A stretch of DNA of 64,000 nt from Candidatus Kerfeldbacteria bacterium (GTDB lineage: Bacteria > Patescibacteriota > Patescibacteriia > UBA10025 > JAHIVO01): contig CP181398.1 of NCBI GenBank assembly GCA_047946875.1, positions 777,041 to 841,040 of the forward strand. The letters are read 5' to 3'. Below the pieces are notes generated by a model. It saw only the letters and a list, made by a program, of their open reading frames with translations, was not told the DNA's origin and ran no database searches. Positions 5,219-46,799 of the stretch are shown here, one piece after another (the first letter of the stretch is position 1; each line of letters opens with the position of its first letter). A program made the position numbers and the translations under genes.

Positions 5219-5227
5219 AAAATGATT
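1..5227. repeat. Copy 1 of a ~5.2-kb direct duplication; ~100% identical to copy 2 from ~1000 to 5227 and ~90% in 1-1000
   Basis: Six-frame ORFs 1001-1246, 1397-1624, 1419-1631, 1878-2078, 2147-2365, 2850-3047 and 2861-3079 have identical translations to ORFs at +10025. Direct reading of lines 4861-5220 against 14881-15245 shows only isolated SNPs, e.g. acctaaGctc versus acctaaActc. Confidence 0.9.
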
Positions 5228-5307
5228 TTTTGTAAAATATATATATTCTCCTATAAGAAACTCTAAAATTCATAGCACTTTAATAAAAATAATTTACTAA
5301 AATATTT

Positions 5308-8300
5308 TTATAACTCAATTATATCCCATATCGTTCCTACGCCAGGTATAGTTCCTTGTAAATTCCATGTTATCCCTTCATCATCCGAACGTGCAACATC
5401 ACCATTGCTTCCATAAACATATAATGCTCCATCTAGAACTTCTATTACTCCGCTCGAAATCGAGGCAGTGCCAACGTTAGTCCAAGTTACTCCATCATTA
5501 TTTGAACGATAAATTTGTGTAGCGGGACCGGACCCGACAGCCGCAAATAAATCACTATTAAATAAAACAATTGAGGATACCATTGTATAAATTCCAAAAT
5601 CTATCTGCATATTCCATGAAATACCATGATCAGGGCTAAGGTATATTCTGCCATACTGATCGTTTAATGCAGATGCTACGTCCTCGAAACGTGCGCCTAC
5701 AATTAAATTGCTATTTTGTTCAATTACCGCATCAACTCTCTTTACATCTACTCCTAAATCGCCGGGGTCGTCAAACCAAGTAATACCGTCATTTAATGAA
5801 TAAAACATATCACCATTTTCTTGAGTACCCGCCCAAAGGTCGCCACCAAAATCAATAATCGACCAAACGCGTATAGCACCCGCCAAATCACCGCTAGGAT
5901 TCCAACTTGCGCCACCATTATCTGAATAAAAAATATTACCTCCAGGACGAGTACCTGCCAGTAATCTATTATTATGATTAAGTATTATATCAATATTACC
6001 AGCATCAAATCCACCGATGGTTAAATTGGCTGTATCATACCACGTTGCCCCATTGTTATCTGAACGATAAATATTTCCATCAGGGCTTGAACCAACATAA
6101 TACGAACCTAATCGTTCGACAAAAGAATCTGCGTACACTTGTCCAGGTAAATCAACAATATGAGTCCAGGTGGCTCCACTATCATTTGTACCCCATATCC
6201 CTCCACTAACATTACCGGTAGCAGCTAAAAAGGTTGCGGCAGCAGGACAATCGGTGTCAGTTGCGAATGTACATACAGGAGCGCCTACTCCAGAAGGACA
6301 ACATCCGTTCCCATCTTGACATCCACAATCTGGATCTTGGACAACAGAACACAAAAGAGGACAACCACCACCACAGAGAGGTGTAGTTGGCACACAAGCA
6401 GGAGCCGCACCACCAAATGCATAAAGAGTAAACACAAAATCTACATCATTGGCAGGATTTACCAAATCAGCAAGTTTTATCCAATTATTACCATTGTCAG
6501 TTGATCTATAAACTGCAGCGCTTGTAGTACCAATAAACATTGCATTGTTATCAGAGGCTGAACTAATTATATTTAAAGCACCTGCGGGTACAGTTCCAAG
6601 GGCTGTCCATGTCCCAATACCAGATCTTCTATAAAAATTTTCACTATCTCCTCCAGCATAAACGAATCCTCCATTTTCCATTAATGTGTATATAGCAAGT
6701 GTAGGCATATTAGTAACAGTCCAAGTTACTCCACTATTTGTAGATTCATAAATATGTCCATTTTGACTAGCAACAATAATTGAACTTCCAAAGGATAATA
6801 TCTCACTTATAGTCCCTCCTCCGGTATCCATTACTTCAATACATGGTAAGGCTCCAGCAACGCATCTATAAACTTTACCGGTAAGCAATCCAGCATAAAC
6901 ATCAGAACCATCTTGAGCCAGGGCATCAACTTGAGTAGTAAAAACAGTCAGTAAATTCCACGTAGTTCCCAAATCAGATGATGTGAAAATTCCTTCATCT
7001 GTAGCTGCATATATTTTACCACCAAAAAATATGAGATCTTCAGCATCACCTGATGTACCAAGAGGATTAGGAGTAACAGCCCAATTAAGACCTCCATCGT
7101 TAGATATAAGAACAACATGTCCCCCTCCGGGTCCAAAAGAACCTTGTAAACCAGCAAATAAAACACCACCAACATTCAGAAAGGATTCAGGATAAGACGT
7201 ACCACCAGCACTAAAATTATTATTCCAAGTGGAACCGCCATCATTAGTTAAAAAAATATCTGCAGTTGAACCGGAATGTGTACCTACCATTATATCCGCA
7301 GCTATCGGTGGAATTGCCGGCGGTGGACAATCATTATCAGTTGCAAATGTACATCCCAATCCTGCAGGACAACACCCATTGTTATCTTGGCATGCACAGT
7401 CAGGATCTTCTACTATCGTACATATAGGAGGGCAAGCTGGGATACCACCACAGAGAGGGACACTAGGAACACAAACAGGGGCACCACATGCACCAGCCAC
7501 ACTAGGTATATTATCATAAAAACTAATATTGCCAGCGTTATCTTCTGCTATCACGTCTACATAAAATGATGTATTTGAAATATCAGAAGTCCAAACACCT
7601 TCAAAAATATTATCTAAGTCTGGGTCTGTCATTGCTACAGGATTATTAGCACTAATTACTGATATTCCATCAGGATTTTGTAATACTGCTTGTACACTAG
7701 CTATACCATCAGCGTCTGTAACCTCAGCCCTAAAACAAAAGTCAGTGCCTGTACCACCAGTAGGCGGATTAACAGTTGGCATGATAATTTGAGGTCCACC
7801 ATTTCCTCTAACATTAACCAATATTTCAATACTTTCACTCCTATTCCCAGCTGTATCTACTGCCTCTGCTTGAATAGAATGCCAACCATCAGTCAATACA
7901 TCTGTATTAATAGCATATGAGTATGGAACCAACGGATCAACAAACTGTCGATGATAATCAATATAGAAATTTACATGCTGAACACCACGATTATCATTAG
8001 CGTCTACTTCAATATCTATATCACCAACTACCGCTGTACCATAAATTGGCGTTGGTGGATGTATAAAAGATATTGTTGGCGCGATCTTATCATTCATCTC
8101 ATTATCTACAGGAATAGTTATAGTAGCACTACCAATATTCCCATACATATCATATGCATCTATCCGAATATCATGCTCTTCATTAAGATACCCTAAGGTG
8201 TCCCATTCCCAAGTCCATTGATTGTTAGCAACATGAGTTGCATTACCTCGGAAAATATTATCAACAAAAACTTGAACATAATCAATCCAATTCAAATCAT

Positions 8301-11300
8301 CTACTGTAATATCTATATCAATTACATCTTTTCTTTGACATATTATTCCAGCTCCACATGGAGTAACTTGATTACAAGGCGGGCCAACACCTGAACAAGT
8401 ACCCGGAATATTACCAATAGTAACTACTGGAGCAGTAGTATCAAAATTTTCTACCTTTACAAAAATAGTTTTAGTAGAAACAAGCGTTGTGTTATCTGTC
8501 GCCGTAGCTATAAGTGTATAAATACCATTTGGCGTATCTGGAGCAATTGGTGGACCAGTACAATCCCCAACAGTATCCCAAAGGTGTGTACCAGAATATG
8601 GATTTGATAATCCTCCAAACACATGAAGGGCACAAGGAGTTTCTACCCCATCACTATCAAACGCATGTATTTCTACACCTATAATACCGCCATCATCAGA
8701 AGCGACAACATCTATTGGTACAGTCCCCGTAATAGTCTGACCATCTGCCAAAGAAATAATATCAATGAAAGGAGGATTGTTAACAACTCCAGAATTATTT
8801 ATTACTAAAGTATATGTAGGGCTATTGCTCCAATTTCCAACATTGTCATATGCTTTTAATAGTAAACTATGATTACCATCAACATACTCATTAGAAATAA
8901 AATTCCATGACCAACTAGCAGGATCATCATCTGTATACTTGTATTGACCATCGATATAAAATTCTACTTTAGCTACACCCGTAGCTGTAGCAATAGGCAG
9001 ATCAGTCAAAATAACTTCTACGGCCTGTGTTCCATTAACATTATTAAAAATATTAGCTACCGGAGCAACAGTATTTAAAGTAACCGCATCAAACTGAGGA
9101 CCAACACGATCTGTGATCGTCCCAGTAACATTCTTAAAATAATTAAAACAATTACAATCTGCATTAGTAAAAGAACTGCATGGATCAAACACTCCAGCCA
9201 AACCGATATTCCAAGTATTGAATCCCCCATATATTAAGTATTCTAAATGTCCATAAAGATCTACATTCTTACCATCTGGAGATACTATATATTGATAAGT
9301 ATAAGAATTTGAAGGGCAGAAATATTCTTGATTTGTATCATCCCAACAAGTACTTGTATTAAAAGGTGCTAAACAAATATCAAAAATATTATAAGGATCA
9401 GTCGGCATACTCAATCCAAGACTTGAGCCCAACTTATCACTCCAAGAAGGCCAACCTGAAGAAGTAAGATTTTTGATATAAGTACCTCCTTCTAGTTTTG
9501 GAAATTCTCCATTTATTTCTTTATATTCCAAAGCGCCAGTATAAATGTCATTAAGATCACTAACTCTCTTCATATCTCGATGCATTTTTTCTTTATTAGT
9601 ATCTGTATCATTAATAGTAAATTTCCAATTAGCTAACAATGCATTATAAATACTTAATGTTTCAGCAGAAGCTCCTTCGTTATATGAAATCAAATATAAT
9701 TGTGGGTATAAGGCATCTCCAACCTGTGCTGCACCGTCAAAACCAGTACCTGAGATATTCCAAGCTGCTACATATACTGTTCTACCTGACCTGATCGCGT
9801 TATATCCATCCACTACAATATCTTGTGGGGCTGGGGCAGCAGAACCAAAATGATTAAAATACCATTCTCTAGCTGACTTACCTTCTTCATTTTCATAAAC
9901 CCTAATACCAATCGCATCGTCTGACAAATCTCGTAAGAAGAAAAATTCTTTTAATAATTCATCCACCCCAATAGTACTAGGTGTACCTTCATGAACCACC
10001 GTATCAATCACTAGTTTTAAGGTTGGTAACCCTCCATCAAGGCAATACCAAGTAGAAAAATTAGTATCAAAGTTATTATTGGTAGTAATAGTATCTATTT
10101 TAGGATATTGAACAGAATCTTCAAATGGTAAAGTTTCGCCAGCACTAACATTTGGCCAAGGACTCTCACATAAAATATTCCTTATGGAAACATTCTGGGT
10201 CAAAGAACCATAATCCGTACTAGCAACACCTATGCTTAACGAAGCTGCTCCATTCTGATTATTTGAAGTTATATATCGAGCATTTGGTGGACCTGGGTTT
10301 GTAGTTGTAAAAATATCTATTGGATCATTCTCGGTCCATGTCCAGGTAAAAGAACCGATGGTAAGATTTTGATTATTGTTATCACGGGGCGCTGCAGTAT
10401 ACGCATGCTGATTACCTGCCAAGCCTGGTACTGGTACATAATCCCCAAGACAAGCATCTCCTGCACAAGTAAATAAATCACCATAATCTGAAATGTCATA
10501 AGTGTATAATGGTAAAATAGTTGATTGAACTAATAAGTTATCAACCTGACAAATAATATCCCCCGTTGTAAATGAAATATGAAAATCAAGATATGGATCA
10601 GGGTATACATTAGAAGTAAAATAGGGACCTGGTTCCATAGCAATGCCTTGCGTAGATAACACTCCTTCCGGACCTGCTTTCATATACAAATCATAATTTG
10701 TAGTTTGATCCATTAGACCTGTTGGACTGATTATTATTTCATCTCCGGCCAAACTTACAGAAGCCGTAAATGGAATAGACACTCCACCATTTTCTAAAAT
10801 AATATTAGTATCATTAACAGTAGCTGGATCAATAGCAGCGCCAGCAAAATAAATAGATATTGATGCATTCCTGCATACATTACCCGCACCATCAGCTGGG
10901 ATAGTACTCGTAACATCTGGGCGATTATAACAGCAAGTATCTTTACCACAAAACTCTGTACCACACTGCGCATCACCAGGGGCTGGGTCCGAAGGATCAT
11001 AATCACAACCACAATACAGACCTCTTTGATTATTGGTACAATTACCTTTATTAGCTACGCAAGTCAAACCTGTGCTAGAAATTTGCTGATCATTTGGCTC
11101 ATTCAGTACATTATTATTATTAACATCTGGATCACAACATGTTATACAACTATTATTTGCAGGTACTCCTATAGTTGTTATTGTTTTTGGAGGAGCATCA
11201 AAATCTCCATTCCCATCTGGATCAAGATTTCCAGAATTATCTATACAACGATAATTATTGTCTGTAACTAAAGGTGCCGGTGCCCCACAAAATCCATTAC

Positions 11301-14300
11301 TTGTAAAATTTGCCGGCAGTTGACATGCACTTCCTGGACCACCTAAACTACAAAATCCACCAGATGGATCACATATATTAGTAGTAGTATTACAACAACT
11401 CCCAAAACCTGCATCGATACAGTGACTATTATTACTACAACTGATGCCAAAATTTACCTCATTAGAATCACAATACAATGGTCCCGCAGGTTCAATCACA
11501 GAAATTCTAGTCTTGCCAGTAACAGCACCCAAAGGCACTGTAACATTATCAAAAGTTGTATCAAAACCTTGCCCAGTAATATCATTAATATATCCTCCAA
11601 CTCCGTCATCAAATCGAGCTATCGTTTGTGGTGTATTATTCAAAGTTAAATTATAACCATTATAGGTAATTGGGTTAGTCCCTTCATAAGCAGCTGCTGG
11701 AACAACATTACATAACCCAGGTAAACCCGTTATCGGTGGTTGCGCACCACTAGCACATAAGTTTGTTGCAGTAAACATTACTGTTGGCGCTTGTGCTGCA
11801 TTTGATAATCCATCGACTGTATTAATCCGTACACCATACAGACCTATAGCTGGTACATTTACAGTTGCGATTATTTCACTATCTGTCCAAGGATTAGCAC
11901 AATTGAAGATTCCAGGGTTCCCACCAAATTCCAGAACTCCAGTAATATTACCAAAATTACATCCAGTAATTGTTACTGTAGTACCAGTCGGACCAGAGTC
12001 AGGATTAAGTCCCCAACCAAGAGGTTGTATAGGTGGTAATGGAACCGTCAAATCACCCACCCAAGGAGTACATTTAAAAGTAGTCAAATCACAAGTACTA
12101 TGATTACCGTCAACAGGACAAGCGTTTTCACAATCAATATTATTAGTACAATCATTAATAGTTAACTCCCCTTGAATAGACGCATTACCGGGACCAATAA
12201 TATCCTGAGCCGACGCCTCAACGAATACTGGGGTTCCGTCGGTATTAACGTCAGTATGAATAACCGCATTATTACCACCTGGATTTGGAGGAACGATTGG
12301 GATTGTGGCACGTGCAGGACGTGGCGGTGCTGGATCAACTACCGTCCAAGTCCAATCAAATCCAATTGGATTCAATACTTGTCCAGCTAAGTTACAAGAA
12401 TCAGGAAAACCAACCGCAGAACCTATATAATTTAAATTTAGATTAATTTGTCTTGTAATAGGTATGCCAGGATTCATAACAACATTATCTATCTCACAAA
12501 CAGTCGGATCAATCCTTGTTTTGAATGTCCATGAATATGCATCAAGAGTTCCATCATCACTATCATCGAAATTCAAACCCCCTAAGCTACTTCCAGGGAT
12601 AGCATTAATTTCTATCCCTTTCATTAAAACAACTCTATAATATGTATTTGGTGCAAGATTAGCATTAGGACTAATATCGATATTAGTAAAAGTAGTGAAA
12701 ATACTAGTTGGATTATTACCTATCTGAGCTAAGCCAGTTACAAAGCTACAACTAGAATCTGTACAACTATATAATTTTACATTAGCAGCATTAATAGAAG
12801 CTGTGACGTCATAACTTACGTCAGCCTGAATCATCGCATTAACACAAGCGCTATCACAAACAGGACTTCTATTAATGACGACTGGATGGTTTGGAGGAAT
12901 AGGCATAACTGTAAAATCTACTGGATTACTGGCCCCAGCATTATTTATGATGGTTACAGCATTAAGTCCAAAAGTTGCAATATTAGGAGCAATACTTGGC
13001 ACCTCTGTGCTAATAAAATTATCAACCCAAGAATTAATTGGAGCGTCATTTGCATCAAAATTTACTACTTGAGTCACATTATGAGGATCAAATCTTATAC
13101 CTGATAAACTCACCGTCGTACCATGATAACCACTAGCTGGATTTATCCCCCAAATACAAGGTCCACCTGAAATATTAGGATCACTAACATAATAATAAGC
13201 ACCAAGATTATCAGACGTAGCCACCCCAAAGGCTGGATCAATATAAGAAATCTCAATTTGTGGCTTCGGTCTCTCAAACTGCACAAACGGTGCAGGAATC
13301 GTACTTGTTAGATTTGTAGCTGTAACCCCGCCAACTATACCAGGAGTAATTGGTGCTGGTGGTGGTGGTATAATATTGTGATCAGTAAATTCGAAATTTG
13401 TAATTGTTGCTGGATGCGCTGTTGTACCTTGAAAACAAGAACCAACTACTGTAATACACTGTTCTCGTAATCCACTACCTGGGGCAATATGTGATATATA
13501 TGGAGCACACTCACAAAGATCTGGAGTAGTTACTGAAAAACTCCAATCATATAGCAATGGATTTAAATCTTTATCTATTGGTTTATTTGTAATGACATGC
13601 ACCGTGTAATCTACTCCGGAAACTAATGGTACTGGATTAAGGGCGGCATCTGCTGGATGAAATTGAAATACTCTAAAATGATTATTTATCACATTACCAG
13701 CCACAGATAAATCCACGTCATCAATTATTTCTATATAACCACCAATACCATAAATAGCATATGGACCAGCTGGTGGACGAGTAGAGGCGTCTATCATGGC
13801 CTCAAAATGATCTCCATTAGAACCATCTATCATAATAGTAACTTCATCATAATACATGCTTGTATTGAAAGGTACGGTAATAACAATATCAGGACAGACT
13901 AATAAATCACCAGGAGCTGGATTTACTAGTCCCACGCCAGGAACCAAATCATTAGTTTGAAATTCCCAAGGCAGATAAGCAACCATGTCATTGCCACACA
14001 AATCTTGTACTCCTGATACTGTTACTCGATACCATGTAAATGGCTCCAAAACTAATCCAGCATCAAGATGAACACTAAAACCTTGTGGCGTAATATAAAC
14101 ATTAAGATCAGTAGTATTATTTACTGTACTATCTACAGCACCAAGCTGACCATCTAATTGCTCAAGTACAAAATTTGCTACTATTGGATGCCCAGGATTC
14201 ATTGAATCATCTATAGTCGTCGCATCTATTGCTTCATTAAAATTTATACTAAATATTGGGACTCTAGTTACATCTCTGTCTTCATAACTTGGACTTGCCT

Positions 14301-15252
14301 GATCAGACAATGGATATGTAGAAACAATTTCGGGATCAACATCATCTACTGTAGTACCTACTTCAAACTGCCAATAATATGCATCATCAGTAGCTCCTGT
14401 TAGCGGATGATCATCTAAAATAGCGCCAGCTAAAGCATCAGCCAATGGATTAGACTTATTATCAGTTACTGATATAGGTATCCATAATCTGTAATTAGTA
14501 TTTTGAACAAGACTGCCAAATAAAGTATCATCATGCTTCAAAGTAAAACCATTATTGAATGTTACTAATTCAAGCGGGGTTAGAAAAGGTGTGGCAGGAG
14601 GGCTAGGATAATGCCATCCACTCCAAATACCTGAGCCTTGTGGCAGAGTTTCTTCTTCAATATATATTAAGTCAGAATTGTCACCAGCAAATACGGCTGC
14701 AAAAGTAGCTGGATCAATTTTATTATTAAACACAGACTGTAACCTACTACACATAGTTACATCCACAGCCCAATCAGTTCCAGAAGCAACACTTGTCTGA
14801 GTATAATTCCAAGTAAACTCATATGGTGGGAAAACACTACTAGAACCACTACCCGTACCAGGACCACCAGTAACTTTATTAGCTGTATCAACTATAAAGG
14901 AAACAATAGCCCAAGATAATAAAACAATCACCAAGCCAATAGCAGCTTGGGTAATAATTTTCTTAGCTTTGGCAATTTTATCTTCGTTACCAGCTGCAGT
15001 CATCCAAATAAATCCACCGTAAATCATCATTATAACCGCCACTAAACCAAGGAATCCTAAAGCCCACTGTATGATATTAATGATTGTTGACTCTAAATCT
15101 GCCGTACCTAAACTCAATGTAGTACCAATATTTGGGTCTACGGTCACAGCATATACCTGACTTGCAACAAGTAATCCACCAGCAATCAAAATGAATACAA
15201 ACAAACCTGTGAATATTCCAAAAAATATATTTTTTTTATTTCGTACCCCCAT
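5308..15252 (-). CDS. Giant secreted surface protein, 3314 aa. It has an N-terminal signal-anchor plus two-helix pilin-like hydrophobic segment, T/N/G-rich Ig-like/beta-rich repeats, two Cys-rich modules and two BNR/Asp-box (SxDxGxTW) beta-propeller-like repeat blocks at the C-terminus.
   Basis: Single 9945-nt ORF with ATG at 15252-15250. N-terminus MGVRNKKNIFFGIFTGLFVFILIAGG, then IINIIQWALGFLGLVAVIMMIYGGFIWMTAAGNEDKIAKAKKIITQAAIGLVIVLLSWAIV. C-terminal third contains about 11 Asp-box motifs (SNDGGLNW, SSDLGTTW, STNSGVTW, STDNGNNW, TNDSGATW, SDNNGATW, SDNGGASW, SLNDGITW, SPDHGISW, SNNDGVTW, SDDEGITW). Two CxxC-rich linkers are present (CGAPVCVPSVPLCGGIPACPPICTIVEDPDCACQDNNGCCP and ACVPTTPLCGGGCPLLCSVVQDPDCGCQDGNGCCP). 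Confidence 0.85.
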   Translation of the reverse strand: MGVRNKKNIFFGIFTGLFVFILIAGGLLVASQVYAVTVDPNIGTTLSLGTADLESTIINIIQWALGFLGLVAVIMMIYGGFIWMTAAGNEDKIAKAKKIITQAAIGLVIVLLSWAIVSFIVDTANKVTGGPGTGSGSSSVFPPYEFTWNYTQTSVASGTDWAVDVTMCSRLQSVFNNKIDPATFAAVFAGDNSDLIYIEEETLPQGSGIWSGWHYPSPPATPFLTPLELVTFNNGFTLKHDDTLFGSLVQNTNYRLWIPISVTDNKSNPLADALAGAILDDHPLTGATDDAYYWQFEVGTTVDDVDPEIVSTYPLSDQASPSYEDRDVTRVPIFSINFNEAIDATTIDDSMNPGHPIVANFVLEQLDGQLGAVDSTVNNTTDLNVYITPQGFSVHLDAGLVLEPFTWYRVTVSGVQDLCGNDMVAYLPWEFQTNDLVPGVGLVNPAPGDLLVCPDIVITVPFNTSMYYDEVTIMIDGSNGDHFEAMIDASTRPPAGPYAIYGIGGYIEIIDDVDLSVAGNVINNHFRVFQFHPADAALNPVPLVSGVDYTVHVITNKPIDKDLNPLLYDWSFSVTTPDLCECAPYISHIAPGSGLREQCITVVGSCFQGTTAHPATITNFEFTDHNIIPPPPAPITPGIVGGVTATNLTSTIPAPFVQFERPKPQIEISYIDPAFGVATSDNLGAYYYVSDPNISGGPCIWGINPASGYHGTTVSLSGIRFDPHNVTQVVNFDANDAPINSWVDNFISTEVPSIAPNIATFGLNAVTIINNAGASNPVDFTVMPIPPNHPVVINRSPVCDSACVNAMIQADVSYDVTASINAANVKLYSCTDSSCSFVTGLAQIGNNPTSIFTTFTNIDISPNANLAPNTYYRVVLMKGIEINAIPGSSLGGLNFDDSDDGTLDAYSWTFKTRIDPTVCEIDNVVMNPGIPITRQINLNLNYIGSAVGFPDSCNLAGQVLNPIGFDWTWTVVDPAPPRPARATIPIVPPNPGGNNAVIHTDVNTDGTPVFVEASAQDIIGPGNASIQGELTINDCTNNIDCENACPVDGNHSTCDLTTFKCTPWVGDLTVPLPPIQPLGWGLNPDSGPTGTTVTITGCNFGNITGVLEFGGNPGIFNCANPWTDSEIIATVNVPAIGLYGVRINTVDGLSNAAQAPTVMFTATNLCASGAQPPITGLPGLCNVVPAAAYEGTNPITYNGYNLTLNNTPQTIARFDDGVGGYINDITGQGFDTTFDNVTVPLGAVTGKTRISVIEPAGPLYCDSNEVNFGISCSNNSHCIDAGFGSCCNTTTNICDPSGGFCSLGGPGSACQLPANFTSNGFCGAPAPLVTDNNYRCIDNSGNLDPDGNGDFDAPPKTITTIGVPANNSCITCCDPDVNNNNVLNEPNDQQISSTGLTCVANKGNCTNNQRGLYCGCDYDPSDPAPGDAQCGTEFCGKDTCCYNRPDVTSTIPADGAGNVCRNASISIYFAGAAIDPATVNDTNIILENGGVSIPFTASVSLAGDEIIISPTGLMDQTTNYDLYMKAGPEGVLSTQGIAMEPGPYFTSNVYPDPYLDFHISFTTGDIICQVDNLLVQSTILPLYTYDISDYGDLFTCAGDACLGDYVPVPGLAGNQHAYTAAPRDNNNQNLTIGSFTWTWTENDPIDIFTTTNPGPPNARYITSNNQNGAASLSIGVASTDYGSLTQNVSIRNILCESPWPNVSAGETLPFEDSVQYPKIDTITTNNNFDTNFSTWYCLDGGLPTLKLVIDTVVHEGTPSTIGVDELLKEFFFLRDLSDDAIGIRVYENEEGKSAREWYFNHFGSAAPAPQDIVVDGYNAIRSGRTVYVAAWNISGTGFDGAAQVGDALYPQLYLISYNEGASAETLSIYNALLANWKFTINDTDTNKEKMHRDMKRVSDLNDIYTGALEYKEINGEFPKLEGGTYIKNLTSSGWPSWSDKLGSSLGLSMPTDPYNIFDICLAPFNTSTCWDDTNQEYFCPSNSYTYQYIVSPDGKNVDLYGHLEYLIYGGFNTWNIGLAGVFDPCSSFTNADCNCFNYFKNVTGTITDRVGPQFDAVTLNTVAPVANIFNNVNGTQAVEVILTDLPIATATGVAKVEFYIDGQYKYTDDDPASWSWNFISNEYVDGNHSLLLKAYDNVGNWSNSPTYTLVINNSGVVNNPPFIDIISLADGQTITGTVPIDVVASDDGGIIGVEIHAFDSDGVETPCALHVFGGLSNPYSGTHLWDTVGDCTGPPIAPDTPNGIYTLIATATDNTTLVSTKTIFVKVENFDTTAPVVTIGNIPGTCSGVGPPCNQVTPCGAGIICQRKDVIDIDITVDDLNWIDYVQVFVDNIFRGNATHVANNQWTWEWDTLGYLNEEHDIRIDAYDMYGNIGSATITIPVDNEMNDKIAPTISFIHPPTPIYGTAVVGDIDIEVDANDNRGVQHVNFYIDYHRQFVDPLVPYSYAINTDVLTDGWHSIQAEAVDTAGNRSESIEILVNVRGNGGPQIIMPTVNPPTGGTGTDFCFRAEVTDADGIASVQAVLQNPDGISVISANNPVAMTDPDLDNIFEGVWTSDISNTSFYVDVIAEDNAGNISFYDNIPSVAGACGAPVCVPSVPLCGGIPACPPICTIVEDPDCACQDNNGCCPAGLGCTFATDNDCPPPAIPPIAADIMVGTHSGSTADIFLTNDGGSTWNNNFSAGGTSYPESFLNVGGVLFAGLQGSFGPGGGHVVLISNDGGLNWAVTPNPLGTSGDAEDLIFFGGKIYAATDEGIFTSSDLGTTWNLLTVFTTQVDALAQDGSDVYAGLLTGKVYRCVAGALPCIEVMDTGGGTISEILSFGSSIIVASQNGHIYESTNSGVTWTVTNMPTLAIYTLMENGGFVYAGGDSENFYRRSGIGTWTALGTVPAGALNIISSASDNNAMFIGTTSAAVYRSTDNGNNWIKLADLVNPANDVDFVFTLYAFGGAAPACVPTTPLCGGGCPLLCSVVQDPDCGCQDGNGCCPSGVGAPVCTFATDTDCPAAATFLAATGNVSGGIWGTNDSGATWTHIVDLPGQVYADSFVERLGSYYVGSSPDGNIYRSDNNGATWYDTANLTIGGFDAGNIDIILNHNNRLLAGTRPGGNIFYSDNGGASWNPSGDLAGAIRVWSIIDFGGDLWAGTQENGDMFYSLNDGITWFDDPGDLGVDVKRVDAVIEQNSNLIVGARFEDVASALNDQYGRIYLSPDHGISWNMQIDFGIYTMVSSIVLFNSDLFAAVGSGPATQIYRSNNDGVTWTNVGTASISSGVIEVLDGALYVYGSNGDVARSDDEGITWNLQGTIPGVGTIWDIIEL
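10026..15252. repeat. Copy 2 of the ~5.2-kb direct duplication (5' half of the 3314-aa gene)
   Basis: Same as copy 1. Identity ends exactly at the start-codon region: both copies share ...aaaaaatatattttttttatt and then diverge (MNKK... versus MGVRNKK...). Upstream regions are unrelated. Confidence 0.9.
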
Positions 15253-15298
15253 AATTATAATTAAAAATTTATTGACAAGCTATTTAAATTTCTAAAGT

Positions 15299-16070: not shown

Positions 16071-16227
16071 CTCCTTTTCAATATTTTTTTAGTTATTTAA
16101 TATTAATAATATACCACTTATTTAGCACTATTGTCAATTAATGTTATTAATATATTAGAAAAAACAACAAATATATTGTTTAATAATATTCATTAGCTAA
16201 TGTTAGCAATTATTGTTCTTTTTTAAG

Positions 16228-16268
16228 CTGTCCGCCCCCGCCTACGTCGTCACTTTGGCGGGCAGGTC
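16228..16268. other. GC-rich palindromic hairpin (ccgcccccgcc...ggcgggcagg) in an AT-rich intergenic region
   Basis: A ~40-nt island of >70% GC with inverted repeat CCGCC/GGCGG arms between rpsU and the HIT gene. No T-tract in terminator orientation. Resembles the GC-rich inserts in the tRNA-Val loci. Confidence 0.4.
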
Positions 16269-16591
16269 TAGAGGTCTGCCAAAAAATGTATATGTAGATG
16301 CATTACTTCTTGCCCACAATCTTTACCAGTATTTACTACCAACTTATACCCTTTTTCATTTAATCCTAGATTATTTGCAATTTCTTTTGTCCCTAACATC
16401 ATATCTGACAACAACTTACTATCATCCATATCTAGATGTAACATCGATTTGATATGTTTTTTCGGTATAAACAAGTAATGAATCGGCGCCTTAGGAACAA
16501 TATCTTTGATTACTATAAAATTATCTCGATCTAAAATATATTCCGTGGGTATTTCTTTGTTTATTATTTTACAAAAAATGCAATCATCCAT
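16268..16591 (-). CDS. HIT-family (histidine triad) nucleotide hydrolase
   Basis: 107 aa. Histidine triad HLHIHFL near the C-terminus and N-terminal CIFCKII motif typical of HinT-like proteins. Confidence 0.85.
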   Translation of the reverse strand: MDDCIFCKIINKEIPTEYILDRDNFIVIKDIVPKAPIHYLFIPKKHIKSMLHLDMDDSKLLSDMMLGTKEIANNLGLNEKGYKLVVNTGKDCGQEVMHLHIHFLADL

Positions 16592-18708: not shown

Positions 18709-18749
18709 AAAATTTTTTTAGTATCGATTGTTTATTTTTATTTGGTGAA

Positions 18750-18811
18750 TGGTGGGTTCGAGAGGAGTTGCCCCGCAGTGCGGGATCCCGTTCGCGAGAA
18801 ACCTCTAAATT
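18750..18811 (-). other. Truncated duplicate of the 3' 28 nt of tRNA-Val(GAC) (T-arm 5' strand to CCA), interrupted in the T-loop by a 29-nt GC-rich palindrome
   Basis: 18750-18770 (tggtgggttcgagaggagttg) is identical to 18852-18872, the tRNA 3' end. 18805-18811 (aacctct) matches 18873-18879. The intervening ccccgcagtgcgggatcccgttcgcgaga forms a CCCGCA/TGCGGG hairpin. No 5' half of a tRNA is present. Confidence 0.6.
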
Positions 18812-18851
18812 ATGTTATCTCTTTCAAATGATTTTATAAAGTTTTCTAAGC

Positions 18852-18928
18852 TGGTGGGTTCGAGAGGAGTTGAACCTCTGACCTCCACAATGTCAATGTG
18901 GCGCTCTAACCAACTGAGCTACGAACCC
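18852..18928 (-). tRNA. tRNA-Val (anticodon GAC), CCA encoded
   Basis: The reverse complement GGGTTCGTAGCTCAGTTGGTTAGAGCGCCACATTGACATTGTGGAGGTCAGAGGTTCAACTCCTCTCGAACCCACCA folds as a canonical cloverleaf. Anticodon loop is TTGACAT; discriminator is A73. Confidence 0.9.
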
Positions 18929-18948: not shown

Positions 18949-19081
18949 TGGTCGAGGCTGAATTCGAACCAGCGACTTCTGCAATGTGAATACAGCGCTC
19001 CCCGCCCGTACCAAACGGGTACGTTCGGGCGGGTAACTTCATCCCGCCTGTTCTAGGCGGGGCAAGCTGAGCTACACGACC
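18949..19081 (-). tRNA. tRNA-Val (anticodon CAC) interrupted by a 62-nt GC-rich structured insertion in the D-loop (intron-like, or a pseudogene)
   Basis: The reverse complement reads GGTCGTG TA GCTC AGCTTG [62 nt] GAGC G CTGTA TTCACAT TGCAG AAGTC GCTGG TTCGAAT TCAGC CTCGACC A. All canonical positions are in place (U8, A14, U33, anticodon CAC, A37, T54-T55-C56, A58, A73) apart from a U6-U67 mismatch. No encoded CCA. Confidence 0.65.
19001..19062. repeat. 62-nt GC-rich palindromic insert inside the tRNA-Val(CAC) D-loop: two hairpins CCCCGCC-n7-GGCGGG and CCCGCCCG...CGGGCGGG
   Basis: cccgcccgtaccaaacgggtacgttcgggcggg taacttcat cccgcctgttctaggcgggg. >70% GC in a ~30% GC context, with two perfect inverted repeats. 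Confidence 0.7.
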
Positions 19082-19229
19082 ACATTATCTTAAGCGCTGA
19101 TACAAGATTTTTGATATTAAATTAATATTACCAATTCATCAAAAAAACCCTTTAAATACGTAATAATTGGTACAATTATACCACAAAAAAACAAAAAGTC
19201 AAGAAAAAATACCTACCTAAATCAATGCA

Positions 19230-26969: not shown

Positions 26970-29900
26970 TTAATATAAACTTGTAGCAACTATTGTAATA
27001 GTAGAAGTATAAGCTCCTGCATCAGTTAAACCGCTAATAGAACCTAATATACATAATTCTGTTTGATGAGTGCTAACAACACCTGTGGCCCCTGCAAAAG
27101 TCTGAAGTGAGGTCGTTAAAGCGGTAGCATTCGATGTAGTCCCCGTATCTGCACAAGAAGTAGGACTCCAAATACCAATATCATATCCAGATCTCGATGA
27201 AGATGCACCATATTCCTCTGTGCCAGCTACGATAGTCCCTCCTGTAGTATCAGCAATCGTATTACCTATTGAAGTCAATGAATTATCATAATAAACCGAT
27301 GCTTGATATCCATTGGACGCATCAGTACTTACTGTCAGAGTCACTCCGTCCTGACTTACCAACGACTCTAATAATGTACCAAGATCAATACTGTTTGGAC
27401 TCAGGGATACTGTCATACCTACGAATAACCAACAATCGTTATTTTGAGAATTTACATTTGTCCCACCGGTAGCATCTATAGTATCTCCTCCACAAGCATA
27501 CGAATCTTGAACATCAGTATAAGTAACTATCTGCGTACCATCACTAGTCAGATTCCATTGAGTACCTGGAGTTGATGAGCGTAAAGTAACTAAGTTTCCA
27601 GAGGTGCCATTGAAACTTACGTTATTAAAAGTATAAGTACTACCCGCATTAAATTCTAATTGGGTATTGGCGGTATCAGCCGTGAAATTATTATCAACAT
27701 CAGCGGCTGCCGCAAAATCAACATCCGGATCAGAAGCGCCAGCATTTGTAATTGTAAGATTATAGAATCTATCGGAAGTACCAGTCATTTGACCCGATAA
27801 TATTTGCTGAGAAGAACCGTCTAGATAGACTGTACCGGACTGATCAGTGAAATTATCATTATTAGTCCAATCTCCCGCAAGATATATTGCATTGTCCTCT
27901 CCACTTTTTACATCTAGAGTACCACCGGTTATTAATAAATCATTATTTATATCAAGAATGGATTCAAGGGTAAAGGTAATATTATTTCCCGTATCATCAA
28001 AAGTAATATCATTGAAGTCGTCTGTAGTAGCGCCGGTAGAATCTATTGTCGGTGATCCGCTTGTAGCATCAAATGTTATAGTACCCGATCTGCATAAAAA
28101 TATATCATCATTATCCCAGCTTCCGCCAACTGTGATCGCATTATTTTCACCACTTACCGCATCCAGATGACCGTTTGTAATTGTAACGTTGTTAAGCACA
28201 ACTAACGGATCTTCTACTTCAACAATTAAATTATAAGTGCCAGCACCGTCATCTATAACGAGATTATAGAGTGAGCCAGTACCAGCGGTAATAAGATCAC
28301 TGGTTATATCACTCACAGAAGATGGTATATTAAAGGTTAAAGTAGAACCGACATTCGTTCCAGCGCTATTTAATAATGAAGCGCCTGACTGTAAATCAAA
28401 CTTACCATCTGTATTCATCTGTGTGCCATCTGTTTCTACATCATCATCAACATCCAAAGTACCGCCACCCGAGCCAGCATCAGTGGAAATAGTAATGCCA
28501 CCCAAACCAATATCAAGATCATATCCATTTGTATTAAGTATATCACCATCATTAATAGTTAGAGTTTTAGCTAATAAATCACTGGCTAGATCAGTGGTAT
28601 CCGGAGAAGTACCTATTTCCAAATTACCGACATCCTGCTGTGGTGAAGTATTGTCCGTAAAGGTCAAATCCCCATCCAGTATTAATTCTCCTGTTCCAGC
28701 GGTAGCGTTATTAAATGTCGTTCCGGACGCCAAGGTAAAATTACCTGCAGCATTGAGATTGCTATCTACTTCCTGCGTAAACACACCCGTATCGGCTATA
28801 TCAAACGTACCATTCACATCCATTGCATCAGCGCTAGCAACACTGCCAGTACCTGACACCTTAAAATTCTGCAATGTTTGGCTGGCTGAAGTAACGGTCT
28901 TTGTCGCGCCGGTCATGTCAATTGTCGATGTTCCAGCAGTGACTGTACCACCGGTCATATCAAGATTACCAGCCATGGTATGAGTAGCATTTGCCAGGGT
29001 AACAGAGCCTGAAAGAGTTAAATTTTGTAATGTCTGTGAGGCGGAAGTAAGGGTGCCAGTGCCATTCATTACCAAAGTATTACCTGAAGTAGCCGTGTAG
29101 GTTCCGTCAGTAAAATTCACATTACCGGAAACAGTCCAAGTTCCAGTGCCTGAGGTAATTATTTCAGATCCATCATCCGCACCGATGAAGTCAAAATCTC
29201 CCTCAATATCAAATGCTGGATTATTCGTCACGCCGGCAAACGTAACATTCTGTGTGCCGTCAGCTATGATATATAAATTACCGTCAATATCCTGGGTTGC
29301 CGTTGCAAGCGGAGTAATCGTGTACGGCGTGCTGTTATCATCATTAAATATTTCCACATCACTGCCATATGTGCGCGCGGGCATAGTCGTGGTATTGCCA
29401 TTTGATGTATCAAAGCGCACCAGTGAACTTAATGTACCTGCAGTAGGTATCGTGGTACCGGAATTAATAGTCAGACGGCCGGCGCCAGAAATCGTACCGT
29501 CAAGCGTGAAACCGCTACCGGTCCATGTGACCGTTCGGCTTGTTTCGATAGCAAGTGAATCTCCCGTATCAACATCAAGTGTATTGCTTACTAACGGATC
29601 GTCAGCCCCCGTATCAGTATCAACGGTGATCGTATTCGTCGTTGCACCGTCTCCAATGGTGAGATCATAAAATGTAGTGTCGCCCAAACCATTAATATCA
29701 TGGCTTGCCACGTTTTCACCGGTAAGTGTTACACTACCGGTCCCCGGGGTAAAATTTCCACTGTTGTTTGTCCAGTCACCCTGTACTTCCATTGCTTCAC
29801 CTTGTGCATCAAAATATATACCACTATCAAGTGTGTAGTTTCCCTTCAACACCAATAATTGCTGGCTCGCGTCATTACTCAATAAACACGGCGTACCGAC

Positions 29901-32900
29901 CGTACCGCGGCTGATTTGCAGATTATAAAATTCAGGCGCATCATCACTCCACTGGTACACCTGGCCTTGAGCAGAACTCGCGCCTGACGGATCATCAATG
30001 ACTATAGTCCCGCCGGTAACCGTCGTGGTAGTAAGTGGTTTCTCATTGTACACGATAAACGAACGGCCAGTTAATGTACCGCCGGTCATATTAAAAGTTA
30101 CTGTCTCTCCGCCGTCATTATGCCGCGCGAGTTCAATGGCTCCATCCGCAACAGTACTCGCCCGCACCGTTCCACCCGCCAGCGTGATTATCCCCTGATT
30201 CAAATTAATGTTAGTACCAACATCCACGCTGCCGTCATTGAAATTAGTAATCTGCGAATTACTTCCGCGCATGTTTAACGCACCCGTAACATCAACATTA
30301 GCTCCTGTATTGAAATTGAGAGTACCGGCTTCTTGCCAAATATTGCCGGCAACCGTCACTGCGCTTGCTATTGTTGCTGTACCACCATTAACATAAAAAT
30401 TATCCTTAACATCCACGGTTCCGCCACTAAACGAATTGGTGCCGCCGTTTATTATTAAGTCTTCTGTCGTACCATTACCAATCGTGAGTGTACCCGCGGT
30501 AACATTTATATTCCCGGCAGATGTTATATTATCTCCATTTACTGTTGCGTCGGCACTCACATTAAGTGTTGCATTCGCATCAATGTCTATATCCAGACCA
30601 ATAATCGATGTTGCCGTATCAAGATGAACTGTGGCATTGTCATCAATGTGCAGATTACCGCCAGTTGCGTCAGTGGTTACCATACCGCCAGGATCAAATG
30701 TATCACCGGTCCACGCATGCAGCTCCATGCCCGACTCTGTTGTCAGCGCGCCCGCAATAACCGCATACCGTATGCCAGCATCAGCATTATCACCGGTCAA
30801 TAACTTAGCGTTTGTCATTGGCCCGGCATTCTCATGTCGAACAATCATCCTATTTTGGTATAGATTAAGTCCGGAAATATTCGACGATATGTCAGCCGCT
30901 AGTGTTGCTGTAGTCGCATGTGGTGTTTCGCTATTATCAATATAGAGCACTATAGGATCGCCACCAGCTGTTGGATCTGTTGCCGGGATAGTGAACGTAC
31001 CACCTGCACTATCGCATTCATACTCGGATGCAGTTCCGCCGTTTGTTGCCGCGTGGACTGTCAATGGATCTGCGGAACAGTCATACACACTTATACCATC
31101 ATCACTGTAAATCGTTCCGGTCAACGTAATACCATCAAATATCCAGCAGTCGTTATTTCCGGAATCAGTGTTGGTGCCATTTGACGCATCAATCCAGTCG
31201 CCGCCGCACGCGTACGAGTACTTTACATCAATGTATGATACATCGGTCTGCGTGCCGGTTACCACCAAATTCCAGTCGCTGGTCGTAGAACTTTGGAACG
31301 TTATTTCATTTCCGACACCTGAAGAACCGGCCCAGTTGATATTTGGAAACGTATACGTCGATCCCGCTTCATATTCAACAGTAACGCCCGCTGTTGTAAT
31401 TGTATAGTTATTTTCGGTTTCAACGGCTGCTCCGAAATCAACAGTTCCGCCACTATTGGTAATAGTTAGGTTATAAAAATCAGAAGAACCTGTCATAGTG
31501 CCTGACAATGACTGAGTAGAAGAACCGGCCAAAACAACAGTTCCATTGTTATCAGTAAACGTGCCATTATTGGTATAGTTACCATTAATATCAAGTGTTG
31601 AACTACTGGAAGCAGATAGCGTGGTAGCAGTATCAATACTCACGTCTCCACTCACTACTAATGATGGATCGTTGGTATTCAAATCTACCGTGGTTGCGCC
31701 GGTACCATCTTGGATAAGTATTAAATCACCAGAGATTGGATACGACCCCGATGCGGCTGTAATAGAATTTGATGAATTACTTCCATACAACTCCACATCC
31801 CCTCCGTACGTACGGGCATCAAATGTAGTATTGGCAATATTACCAGCACTGGCATCATAGCGGACAATACTATTGATCGTTCCTCCCGTGCCAGGACCAG
31901 CGGATGTATCAGTAAACCTAAGTGTGCCAGCTCCTTCAACAGTACCTAAATTAGCAAAAGTTGAGCCGGTATGTGTTACTGTACGACCAGCGCCAATCGA
32001 GAGTGTACCACCCGCACCAAAATTTCCATAAGCACTACTGATTGTGAAATCCGTATTTATAACCGAGATAGCTACATCAGACGCCGAATCAAGTTTGAAA
32101 TCATAAAAAGTTTCCCCGCCAACATCTATAGTATTGTCAGCGCCATGCATTATAACTTCTCCGGTCCCTTCTATTAAATCTGTCAGATCGGCCTTAATAT
32201 ATAGATCACCATAAACACTTATATCGCCACTGATATCATAGGTGCCACCACTATCCGGATCGAGCGAAAGATTATCAAAACTTCCACCCCCCGACACAGT
32301 TACTGAGCCAGTATTAGTAAATTTAAATGTTGAATCCTCTGTCGTTTTATTAACTATAACCATACTTGTTATTGGTGTACCACTTCCTGACATTTCCCAT
32401 GTCTTAGCGCCACCTGCTGCAGCTGAAAGTTTAGCAAACCAAACATCGTCCCCTGCTCCAGCACACGTATCCCTTGCTAATGTATTTGTTATCTTGATAT
32501 CACCACTACCCGTAGCTGACAGTATTCGATCTCCACTACACGCCCCTATAATATCAAAATATAAATCATAAAATGTCCACGTACTACTATTGCCACCAAT
32601 ATTACCTGCAGCGGGCAGCCCAACAGTTACTGTCCCACCGGTCATTGTGATAACGCCATCACCTGTAATATCCCCGCCGTTGGCGGTAAGATCGTTTGAA
32701 CCGGTCAGTGTCGTGCCGGTACCAACGGTGACATCACCGTTTGTAGTCAGCGCATCAGCTAAGGTAATGGTGCCGGTACCGGATGTCTCAAAATCATACA
32801 GAGATTTACCCGCCGCGGTGAGTGAGGGAGTAACACCGTCCATTACCAAAGTATGCCCAGAAGTGGCTGTAAATGTATCACAATTAGTAAGGTCTACGTT

Positions 32901-41270: not shown

Positions 41271-41484
41271 TTTTTTTGGGTGCTTATTTTTTTTACCTAG
41301 TTTAAACACTTTAAATATATGCAAAACTTTTTTATTATTTTAGCTTTGCTTAAGTTAGCAAAAAATTTAACTTAACTTAACAAACATAACAAAACTATTA
41401 TATAATATTATTATGATTTTGTCCAATAAAAATAACTCTCATCATCTTTATAAATGATTCGAATGATTTAAATTATGATTAAAC

Positions 41485-42195
41485 TTATTTAACTTTAGAA
41501 AACCTTAACTTAATAACATTGATAAAACTTTCCAATATTATCCCACTATTAAATTTTGAATTACCTGCTCGCCTCTCAACAAAAATGATCGGAGTCTCTA
41601 CAATTGAAAAACCTTTTTTTTCTGCTTTGTAAGATAGCTCTATCTGAAAATTATATCCGCTCGATTGAATGTTATCCAAATCTAAATTTTCCAAAACTTT
41701 TCTATTCCAACATTTATAGCCACCTGTTAGATCTTTGATAGGTGTCATTAGTATTGCCCTAACCATAGTATTGGCTAGCCAGCTAATAAATCTACGAAAC
41801 CAATTCCAATTCTCTACTCCACCGCCAGGGATATTTCTGGAACCAAGCACTACATCATATTTTTTTGCCTTGTCTAAAAAATCAGGAAGATACTTTGGCT
41901 GATGAGAAAAATCGGCATCCATTTCAAAAATATATTCGTTGCTCGGGTCTTCTAATGCTTTTTTGAAACCTGCAACATAGGCAGGGCCTAAGCCTTCTTT
42001 TTTTTCACGATGTATCACTGAAATATTTTCGTTACTATTGGCCAGTTGATCAGCAATCTGACCCGTACCATCTGGAGAATTATCATCAACAATTATTATC
42101 TTCAAATCTCTTATTCCAATAGAAAAAATTTCCTTGGTGATTGCCAAGATATTTTCCTTCTCATTATAAGTAGGTAATATAATTATCGGTCTCAT
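41485..42195 (-). CDS. Family 2 glycosyltransferase, polyprenol-phosphate mannose/glucose synthase (DPM1-like)
   Basis: 236 aa. Motifs ILPTYNE, IIVDDNSPDGT, DADFSH and GSRN are typical of Dpm1/GtrB-type GT2 enzymes. Confidence 0.8.
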   Translation of the reverse strand: MRPIIILPTYNEKENILAITKEIFSIGIRDLKIIIVDDNSPDGTGQIADQLANSNENISVIHREKKEGLGPAYVAGFKKALEDPSNEYIFEMDADFSHQPKYLPDFLDKAKKYDVVLGSRNIPGGGVENWNWFRRFISWLANTMVRAILMTPIKDLTGGYKCWNRKVLENLDLDNIQSSGYNFQIELSYKAEKKGFSIVETPIIFVERRAGNSKFNSGIILESFINVIKLRFSKVK

Positions 42196-42277
42196 AATAT
42201 TGGCATTTTAGCATAACTAATACCCCTTTTCAACTTTGACCTAAGCTGATTTTTTTATTATAATATAATAAGTTTAT

Positions 42278-43762: not shown

Positions 43763-43777
43763 AAAAATAACCACTTT

Positions 43778-45100: not shown

Positions 45101-45104
45101 TTAT

Positions 45105-45686: not shown

Positions 45687-45713
45687 TAAAAACATAAATA
45701 ATAACTACTCTTT

Positions 45714-46787: not shown

Positions 46788-46799
46788 CTTTATAAAAAT

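Follow-up and report, generated by a model that had tools for sequence, protein, structure and literature searches.

Near the lepB gene of a Candidatus Kerfeldbacteria bacterium, the 3' end of a tRNA gene stands a second time, split in two and detached from any tRNA body, and the question is what this piece is and how it came to lie there. The organism belongs to the candidate phyla radiation (CPR); our analysis of its genome covers 64,000 nucleotides of contig CP181398.1 (assembly GCA_047946875.1), hereafter the window, whose histidyl-tRNA synthetase (HisRS) is identical to XOU93983.1 of Candidatus Kerfeldbacteria. Within the window, the last 28 nucleotides of a tRNA-Val(GAC) gene recur between that gene and lepB, interrupted by a short GC-rich insert. 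Very probably this fragment has no function and is what remains, orphaned, of an earlier tRNA-Val(GAC) copy, and it probably arose by replacement-type recombination rather than through an integrase, though of this we are less sure. Taken together, the remnant, a replacement cassette and a hairpin insert would form the local trace of a turnover of tRNA genes that is seen on a larger scale in relatives, a reading that we favour with fair rather than full confidence.

All features of the locus lie on the minus strand. The intact gene (18852-18928), which encodes its CCA and is presumably functional, is identified as tRNA-Val(GAC) by ARAGORN and Rfam (74 bits). Its last 21 nucleotides, CCA included (18852-18872), are repeated exactly at 18750-18770 (21/21), as the preliminary description of this stretch had stated, and the match stops at both ends with no extension on either side. 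In structural terms, the repeated piece runs from C56 to the end of the T loop and continues through the 3' strand of the T stem, the 3' acceptor strand, the discriminator A and CCA. The seven nucleotides that precede it in the gene (AGAGGTT, or AACCTCT on the plus strand; 18873-18879), which form the 5' strand of the T stem together with T54-T55, recur as well; they had been placed at 18805-18811, a slip of 5 nucleotides, and their true position is 18800-18806. The chance of meeting this 7-mer within 60 nucleotides is about 0.006. Exactly 29 nucleotides separate the two pieces, again as first described (CCCCGCAGTGCGGGATCCCGTTCGCGAGA, 18771-18799), and they form a double-hairpin insert of 72% GC, against an average of 32% GC in the surrounding stretch. 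Read in the sense of the tRNA, the fragment is AGAGGTT[TCTCGCGAACGGGATCCCGCACTGCGGGG]CAACTCCTCTCGAACCCACCA; the insertion between T55 and C56 is clean and carries no target duplication.

The 28 orphan nucleotides equal the last 28 of the gene, without any decay. The full sequence from T arm to CCA occurs uninterrupted only once in the window, even with three mismatches allowed, and at up to three mismatches the window holds neither a third copy of the 21-nucleotide repeat, of which none is expected by chance, nor a second copy of the 29-nucleotide insert. For the insert, two small adjacent hairpins are predicted that fold modestly better than shuffled sequences (z = -1.9), while for the complete fragment the fold is not better than that of shuffles (z = -0.8). 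Searches against Rfam returned the tRNA signal alone, with no ribozyme, intron or other family in this region of the window or in the corresponding spacers of relatives. Bulge-helix-bulge introns, hammerhead-like cores and integron attC-like sites were looked for by inspection only, and nothing convincing was seen.

We compared the locus with its counterparts in nine relatives, which were retrieved through their HisRS homologues and in which it is syntenic; they are referred to here by L numbers. A scan of a genome collection with back-translated HisRS patterns, which were too generic, yielded distant relatives only, at no more than 52% identity. L002 is the partner of the window in a rough HisRS tree (87% identity). 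This sister genome, like L003 and L090, has both tRNA-Val genes intact in the same operon, with no fragment and no insert, so that genomes lacking the fragment, which the preliminary description had suggested looking for, do exist. The tRNA-Val(GAC) of the window is identical to that of L090 at 77/77 positions, and that of L002 differs by one compensated pair. Because these three loci are clean, both the fragment and an insert in the D loop of the neighbouring tRNA gene, described below, arose after the lineages of the window and L002 had separated.

The same distribution bears on the idea that the fragment is a cis-regulatory or processing element, such as a terminator, an attenuator or an RNase site, between the tRNA genes and lepB/hisS. 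It would suit this role that the GC-rich hairpin lies in the lepB 5' leader and inside a single transcription unit, and small hairpins of a similar kind occur by themselves in other CPR genomes, in spacers, and in viral contigs. However, no terminator signature is present in the tRNA-Val/lepB/hisS unit, the fragment folds no better than its shuffles, and three relatives (L002, L003 and L090) have the same operon without it. A regulatory function for the fragment is accordingly very unlikely.

The sequences that flank the two copies indicate which of them is the original. Several of the arguments from short homology, here and below, are alignments of 20-30 nucleotides with uncorrected p values of 0.03 to 0.001, the key ones selected among some 10-18 comparisons. 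The 41 nucleotides after the fragment (18709-18749) align with the flank that directly follows tRNA-Val(GAC) in L002 (17/19, p ~0.03), whereas the 45 AT-rich nucleotides after the intact gene (18807-18851) have no similarity to that flank (p ~1). These 45 nucleotides look like a TTAGAAA-type leader and a degenerate lepB start. They resemble the post-tRNA leader and lepB start of L085 (ATCATTT-GAAAGAGATAACA compared with ATCATTTGGAAAGAGCGAACA; p = 0.009 uncorrected, among about 10 comparisons), and the matching stretch in L085 and L090 encodes a true LepB N-terminus, MRLSFG(K/S)SEQR; the TTAGAAA motif is common to the post-tRNA sequences of L085, L087 and L095. No similarity was detected between the 45 nucleotides and the window's own leader or lepB start, both of which are of the L002 type, or the leader of L002. 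Since the flank of the fragment resembles that of L002 and the flank of the intact gene resembles the type found in other relatives, it is most likely the fragment that represents the original, now displaced 3' end, and we read the 45 nucleotides as having been brought in with a replacement tRNA. A metagenome scan with the junction of the 45 nucleotides and AGAGGTT gave one match, in an unrelated coding region, which is a chance hit.

In another reading, slippage or unequal exchange duplicated the stretch between the T arm and the start of lepB locally in tandem, and the hairpin was inserted afterwards. Such an event would explain why two direct 28-nucleotide copies lie 81 nucleotides apart, each followed by a leader-like AT-rich stretch. 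The two leaders are dissimilar, however, although the second is still recognisably like that of L002. Because the second leader has kept this resemblance, a duplication younger than the split from L002 should still show, and we regard this origin as quite unlikely.

An integrase deserves more weight. Phages and integrative elements leave attachment-site (att) scars, attL and attR, in tRNA genes, with cores that extend from the T loop to the 3' end; the gene is made whole again by the DNA that enters, while its former 3' end, still joined to its own flank, comes to lie downstream. The duplicated 3' end had at first been taken for the footprint of site-specific integration or excision of this kind. 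Such an element would have entered the T-loop-to-3'-end core of tRNA-Val(GAC) by means of a tyrosine integrase, duplicating the tRNA 3' end, and would later have been mostly deleted; its attP would have carried AGAGGTTCAACTCCTCTCGAACCCACCA followed by GCTTAGAAAAC. A direct repeat from the T arm to the exact CCA end (21 + 7 nucleotides) is indeed the canonical footprint, the downstream copy keeps the original flank, and the repeat is absent from relatives. Yet only 45 nucleotides lie between the repeats, and they resemble a leader and a lepB start rather than DNA of an element, while the 29-nucleotide insert sits inside the presumed crossover core. The integrase or recombinase genes whose search had been proposed did not turn up: among the window's open reading frames (ORFs) of at least 150 amino acids that were scanned with Pfam, none showed an integrase, recombinase or transposase domain, and the annotated neighbourhoods in the nine relatives contain none. 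The junction 24-mer and an insert 20-mer are absent from IMG/VR viral contigs, and the whole nested tRNAs, inverted-repeat arms and 5' fragments found in relatives (see below) are not products of an integrase. We conclude that the duplication is a recombination scar, as had been suggested, but that its formation by an integrase is unlikely, in view of the leader- and lepB-like filler and the lack of a recombinase in the regions searched.

From the two flanks we infer the following course of events. A resident tRNA-Val(GAC) would once have stood directly before lepB. An incoming copy of the gene, together with about 45 nucleotides from downstream of it (a leader and initial lepB codons of the other-relative type), would have been anchored at one end in tRNA homology and joined illegitimately at the other, at the 5' edge of the resident T stem, with the result that positions 1-48 of the resident gene were replaced and positions 49-76 orphaned. 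Taken-up DNA of a related strain would be the simplest donor; the window encodes DprA (2e-76), T2SSE and PilM, that is, machinery for DNA uptake and recombination with genes of the type IV pilus or competence type. The 29-nucleotide double hairpin would have landed in the T loop of the orphan at that time or possibly earlier.

What, then, is the insert? It had been interpreted as a small mobile palindromic element with a preference for tRNA-Val sequence. In support of this, the insert is short, GC-rich, cleanly placed and missing, like the fragment as such, in L002, L003 and L090, and related GC-rich inserts occupy the same loop positions of different tRNA-Val backbones in other genomes. A relationship between the two tRNA inserts of the window, which had also been suggested, is weak (p ~0.1) and cannot be upheld. 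The 29-nucleotide insert aligns with a double hairpin in a tRNA D loop of L092 (20/21; p = 0.0012 against dinucleotide shuffles, about 0.02 when corrected), and this alignment indicates that a related elementary hairpin occurs in different loops of different genomes. Homology to an insert in a T loop of L094 was also considered, and was not significant (p = 0.14-0.49).

Another double hairpin, hpA+hpB ([TCCGCC-N3-GGCGGA][TCAGCC-N3-GGCTGA], with variable loops), is found in tRNA D loops of L087 and L094. It also stands free in spacers of distant CPR genomes (L006, position 4829; L009, 5877; L011, 1521, 4061 and 4352), often beside tRNA genes (tRNA-Val and tRNA-Ile among them), and in 10 IMG/VR viral contigs of 37-45% GC (L131, L133, L134 and L137-L142 among them), sometimes in several copies per contig. 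In the viral contigs the second hairpin is complete although the search pattern did not demand it. Rfam has no entry for the hpA+hpB double hairpin, which could serve as a signal for processing or termination or be a mini repeat element, and might represent a link between phages and CPR hosts. Membership of the 29-nucleotide insert in this subfamily was rejected: a covariance model (R1) built from 12 copies, on which true copies score 38-52 bits, has no match at 18771-18799, and the D-loop hairpins give weak partial matches (E = 2.6 and 6.7). On balance, we think it rather likely that the insert is one of a group of GC-rich hairpins, loosely related to each other, whose targets in this clade are loops.

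The neighbouring gene carries such an insert as well, in line with the preliminary description, which had noted a GC-rich palindrome there. This gene, a tRNA-Val(CAC) at 18949-19081, gives a partial Rfam match of 27.6 bits and is missed by ARAGORN and by Rfam at the gathering score. Its D loop is interrupted by 63 structured nucleotides, in which hairpin 1 (19063-19041) and hairpin 2 (19033-19001) are separated by the heptamer GAAGTTA; the fold of the cloverleaf with the insert has z = -3.6, and that of the insert alone z = -5.6. Hairpin 1 (GCCCCGCC TAGAACA GGCGGGAT) aligns with both stem ends of a structure that encloses a whole tRNA-Val(CAC) in L087 (left, CTTGCCCCGC, p = 0.0035; right, TAGAA..GCGGGRTGAAGTTA, p < 0.0005). 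Judged by these alignments, it looks like the same element as the arms around whole tRNAs in L087 and L095 but without cargo, the cargo having been deleted or not yet inserted. Hairpin 2 (CCCGCCC..GGGCGGG), which lies between GAAGTTA and the 3' strand of the D stem, matches with its right arm and junction the right arm of the L087 structure (CGGG-CGGGGAGCG, p = 0.009).

Compared with its uninterrupted orthologues in L090 and L002, the tRNA-Val(CAC) of the window has six private G/C-to-A/T substitutions, all uncompensated and including a U.U mismatch at 6:67, whereas tRNA-Val(GAC) has none; the two orthologues themselves are one compensated pair apart, even though their genomes are distant. ARAGORN recognises the gene once both hairpins are deleted in silico and the CTGG of the D loop is restored; removal of the hairpins alone is insufficient. 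This gene is probably under relaxed constraint and a pseudogene. GC-hairpin islands outside genes number only three in the window, at 16.2, 18.8 and 19.0 kb. The first is a lineage-specific insert of about 58 nucleotides (16221-16278, minus strand; CTGCCCGCC..GGCGGGGGCGGACAG) that cuts into the 3' end of a HIT-family gene, so that the protein ends in HFLADL*, where HFLGG... is conserved in all nine relatives.

In six of the nine relatives (L085, L087, L092, L094, L095 and L096), the locus contains tRNA-Val pieces with GC-rich hairpins, and three of these show an architecture that goes well beyond that of the window. In L087, L094 and L095, older tRNA-Val genes contain, in the D or the anticodon loop, complete tRNA-Val genes between GC-rich arms of 10-16 bp, which pair with each other in minimum free energy folds. 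L087 has a tRNA-Val(CAC) with a GGGCGAA acceptor, in whose D loop a 14-bp GC-rich stem (GCCCCGCACCTTCT / AGAAGGTGCGGGGT) surrounds a complete second tRNA-Val(CAC). The same genome has a 5' piece (GGGCGGC..) with a D-loop double hairpin, after which come arms around the functional tRNA-Val(GAC) and, beyond them, the remaining two-thirds (3') that match the piece and complete the outer gene. When the inserts are removed in silico, ARAGORN calls a tRNA-Val(CAC) and a tRNA-Val(GAC). The deposited lepB call of L087 (6247-6999) begins inside a 3' remnant of tRNA-Val(GAC) (VSNRQAKRAGERYLDTVEV...), the real start probably being the downstream MRLTYSKKE; gene prediction can thus be misled by such remnants.

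The outer gene of L095 is decayed and has the GGTCGTG acceptor that is also found in the interrupted gene of the window; whole tRNAs nest between arms in two of its loops: an uninterrupted GGGCGAA tRNA in the D loop and a tRNA-Val(GAC) in the anticodon loop. In L094, the anticodon loop of an older tRNA-Val(GAC) houses another tRNA-Val(GAC), with perfect arms of 16 bp on its two sides. A second copy in this genome is dead, with inserts in its D, anticodon and T loops; its T loop is split as AGAGGTT[93-nt insert]AACTCCTCT..CCA (also given as AGAGGTT[93 nt]AACTCCTCTCGGACCCACCA) directly before lepB, the geometry of the window fragment. L092 (GCA_016214565.1) contains two tandem units of 119 nucleotides (5925-6208), each with the 5' part of a tRNA-Val and a D-loop double hairpin, and after them a tRNA-like gene without an anticodon arm; ARAGORN finds no tRNA at this locus, which may have lost both of its tRNA-Val genes. 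L085 and L096 retain decayed tRNA-Val pieces. Standard tRNA finders miss interrupted copies, and tRNA complements of CPR bacteria can be misjudged in consequence.

The arms are specific to the loop in which they occur. Those of the D site (CTTGCCCYGC ... GCRGGGTGAAGTT) are common to L087, L095 and hairpin 1 of the window, and the arm junctions of the anticodon site (CATTGATCCCTC ... GGGATAAAGGTC) are homologous in L094 and L095 (p < 2e-4), the tRNA that is cargo in L095 being the host in L094. Viral contigs contain nothing that matches the D-site arm junction; the GGGATAAAGGTC-type junction pattern has 33 matches there, which we assume to be due to chance.

Sites in the D, anticodon and T loops resemble the non-canonical intron sites of Archaea, which raises the question of whether the interrupted genes still function, as the halves of split, permuted or intron-containing tRNAs that are joined or spliced as RNA do in some Archaea. 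The fragment would then be a 3' half; it ends in CCA, and the GC-rich helices could keep halves together. Several facts speak against this. The gene content of the window is bacterial (a LepB-type signal peptidase, HisRS, HIT, S21 and YqeY). No tRNA 5' portion lies upstream of the fragment, and the window has neither a 5' partner nor, at k >=10, a complement to the insert. The piece is absent from the sister genome L002, and an intact tRNA-Val(GAC) stands 81 nucleotides away. Interrupted copies gather uncompensated, AT-biased changes, and the hosts of anticodon-site inserts lack the 3' strand of the anticodon stem, so that excision cannot restore a tRNA. A functional disrupted tRNA is highly improbable here.

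The relatives also bear on the possibility that a short repeat was assembled wrongly. In exact-protein look-ups for an independent assembly of the locus, HisRS and HIT of the window gave no record, and lepB gave a single further contig of 1 kb, which stops 20 nucleotides upstream of the gene. Structures of comparable or greater complexity occur, however, in several independent assemblies, one such structure being identical in three samples (L087, L088 and L089), and a unique 29-nucleotide GC-rich insert between exact stretches of tRNA sequence is not a typical repeat collapse. An artefact is very unlikely.

For the relatives, we suggest that an inner cassette assumes the function of the gene, and that the outer shell then decays into 5' and 3' fragments. 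Spread would most likely proceed by gene conversion through the flanking tRNA homology, in a homing-like manner, rather than by a single transposase, since the arms stay tied to one loop site across hosts, with tRNA homology on both sides, whereas one transposase would leave the same ends everywhere. Nested cassettes with loop-site-specific arms thus suggest gene-conversion homing with no obvious enzyme. The small hairpins could be arms that have collapsed and hold no cargo, or free hairpin elements that aim at loops. It is an attractive, if conjectural, idea that extruded hairpin loops are nicked and then repaired from a homologous tRNA-Val template.

A bolder synthesis, which we offer tentatively as possible rather than probable, is that of 'Russian-doll tRNAs', a self-propagating system of tRNA-gene replacement in this CPR clade. 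Armed tRNA-Val cassettes would home into D, anticodon or T loops and take over, their shells would decay, and mini double hairpins shared with viral contigs would accompany them; the fragment and the interrupted tRNA-Val(CAC) of the window would be fresh footprints of this process.

Several points weigh against reading the fragment as the product of replacement and hairpin insertion. The locus is represented by a single assembly. The key short homologies are individually modest (p = 0.03, 0.009 and 0.0012, uncorrected) and were picked from about 10-18 comparisons. The intact tRNA-Val(GAC) of the window has no inverted-repeat arms, which makes the local event unlike the clean nests of relatives; a nested cassette was not found in the window. 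The 29-nucleotide insert has no second copy in 64 kb, the three GC-hairpin islands all fall within 3 kb (16.2-19.1 kb), and the hpA+hpB covariance model does not recognise the insert. That the 28 orphan nucleotides are undecayed means either that the event is very recent or that gene conversion has kept the piece uniform. Finally, the hairpin could have been inserted before or after the displacement.

Read along the minus strand, the locus comprises, in this order, a strong promoter (19202-19175), interrupted tRNA-Val(CAC) (19081-18949), a 20-nucleotide spacer, intact tRNA-Val(GAC), the 45 AT-rich nucleotides, the fragment, the 41-nucleotide leader, lepB and hisS. The promoter (TTGACT, 16 nucleotides, TG-TATAAT) matches the consensus at 11/12 positions with an extended -10 element and is conserved in L002 and L003. 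Together with about 30 nucleotides after it (GTACCAATTATYACGT.TTTAAAGGGTTTTTT; 19130-19202), upstream of the tRNA-Val genes, it is well kept between the window and L002 and partly in L003, and this conserved stretch may be a leader element; L002, L003, L087, L094 and L095 have equivalents of 19130-19202.

A block of glycosyltransferase, LytR, EngA, Pth, T2SSE and PilM genes (41485-47855 in the window) lies directly upstream of the tRNA-Val locus in L085, L090 and L094. In the window and in L002, L003, L087, L095 and L096, the two are some 22 kb apart, with genes for cohesin/dockerin-like and giant surface proteins between them. Since the block adjoins the locus in some genomes and is some 22 kb away in others, the tRNA-Val locus is also a synteny breakpoint. 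Positions 1-5242 and 10026-15267 of the window form a repeat of ~94% identity with an offset of 10,025 nucleotides; the repeat is the 5' part of a gene for a 3314-amino-acid surface protein, which in relatives has a T4SS_pilin-like N-terminus, doubled in another giant gene in tandem with it, which extends past the window's first position. An ORF of 4784 amino acids (26970-41324, minus strand) lies in a stretch whose GC content is 0.40-0.46, against 0.30-0.35 around it.

The closest known systems include the scars of tRNA-directed integration. As in these, the 3' end is directly repeated up to CCA in the window, and the displaced original 3' end keeps its flank; the window differs in that no integrase or element was found, the 45-nucleotide filler is leader- and lepB-like and an insert lies within the core, and relatives have nested tRNAs and 5' fragments. 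Homology-facilitated illegitimate recombination is known from naturally transformable bacteria, with one end homologous and the other illegitimate (PMC3240628). The tRNA-anchored end, the small, apparently foreign patch with a partial duplication, and the DprA and pilus or competence-type genes would fit this process; in our case, unlike those, it is deduced, and the microhomology at the junction, possibly GAGG, is uncertain.

For the inserts, bacterial palindromes resembling repetitive extragenic palindromic (REP) sequences and miniature inverted-repeat transposable elements (MITEs) form one comparison class. Another is provided by repetitive single and double hairpin elements of mitochondria, which enter spacers and rRNA genes and stay in the transcripts (PMC2800124). 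As in these, short GC-rich hairpins, single or in tandem, with conserved stems and variable loops, occur in spacers and structural RNA genes of an AT-rich genome, and their presence varies among relatives. In contrast, the hairpins described here lie within one another and in the functional loops of tRNA genes or of what is left of these, with no associated transposase identified. The double hairpins of CPR genomes and viral contigs could constitute a new class of mini-repeat, possibly a marker of phages and their CPR hosts.

In our literature search, no report of interrupted or nested tRNA genes in CPR bacteria was found, rRNA introns being the only ones reported for CPR. Whereas the fragment itself is a recombination scar with a small palindromic insert, the nested tRNA-Val architecture of relatives is the more novel part, and apparently undescribed. 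Disruption of tRNA genes at the D, anticodon and T loops, with scattered fragments, has been regarded as a speciality of Archaea. There, introns of tRNA genes transpose and are spliced by an endonuclease, and split tRNAs occur (PMC10714607); in the archaeon Caldiarchaeum subterraneum, a tRNA gene is disrupted by a 1.8-kb mobile element that encodes a recombinase (PMC3293823). The locus studied here resembles these cases in having fragments beside a newer gene copy, inserts in D, anticodon and T loops, and related inserts in different tRNAs. It differs in that the organism is a bacterium in which no such enzyme was found, the interrupted copies decay, and function comes from a whole nested tRNA. 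A bacterial lineage with comparable disruption, in which there is no splicing and the damage is resolved by a fresh gene nested in the old one, offers a testable, ongoing model of how disrupted tRNAs originate.

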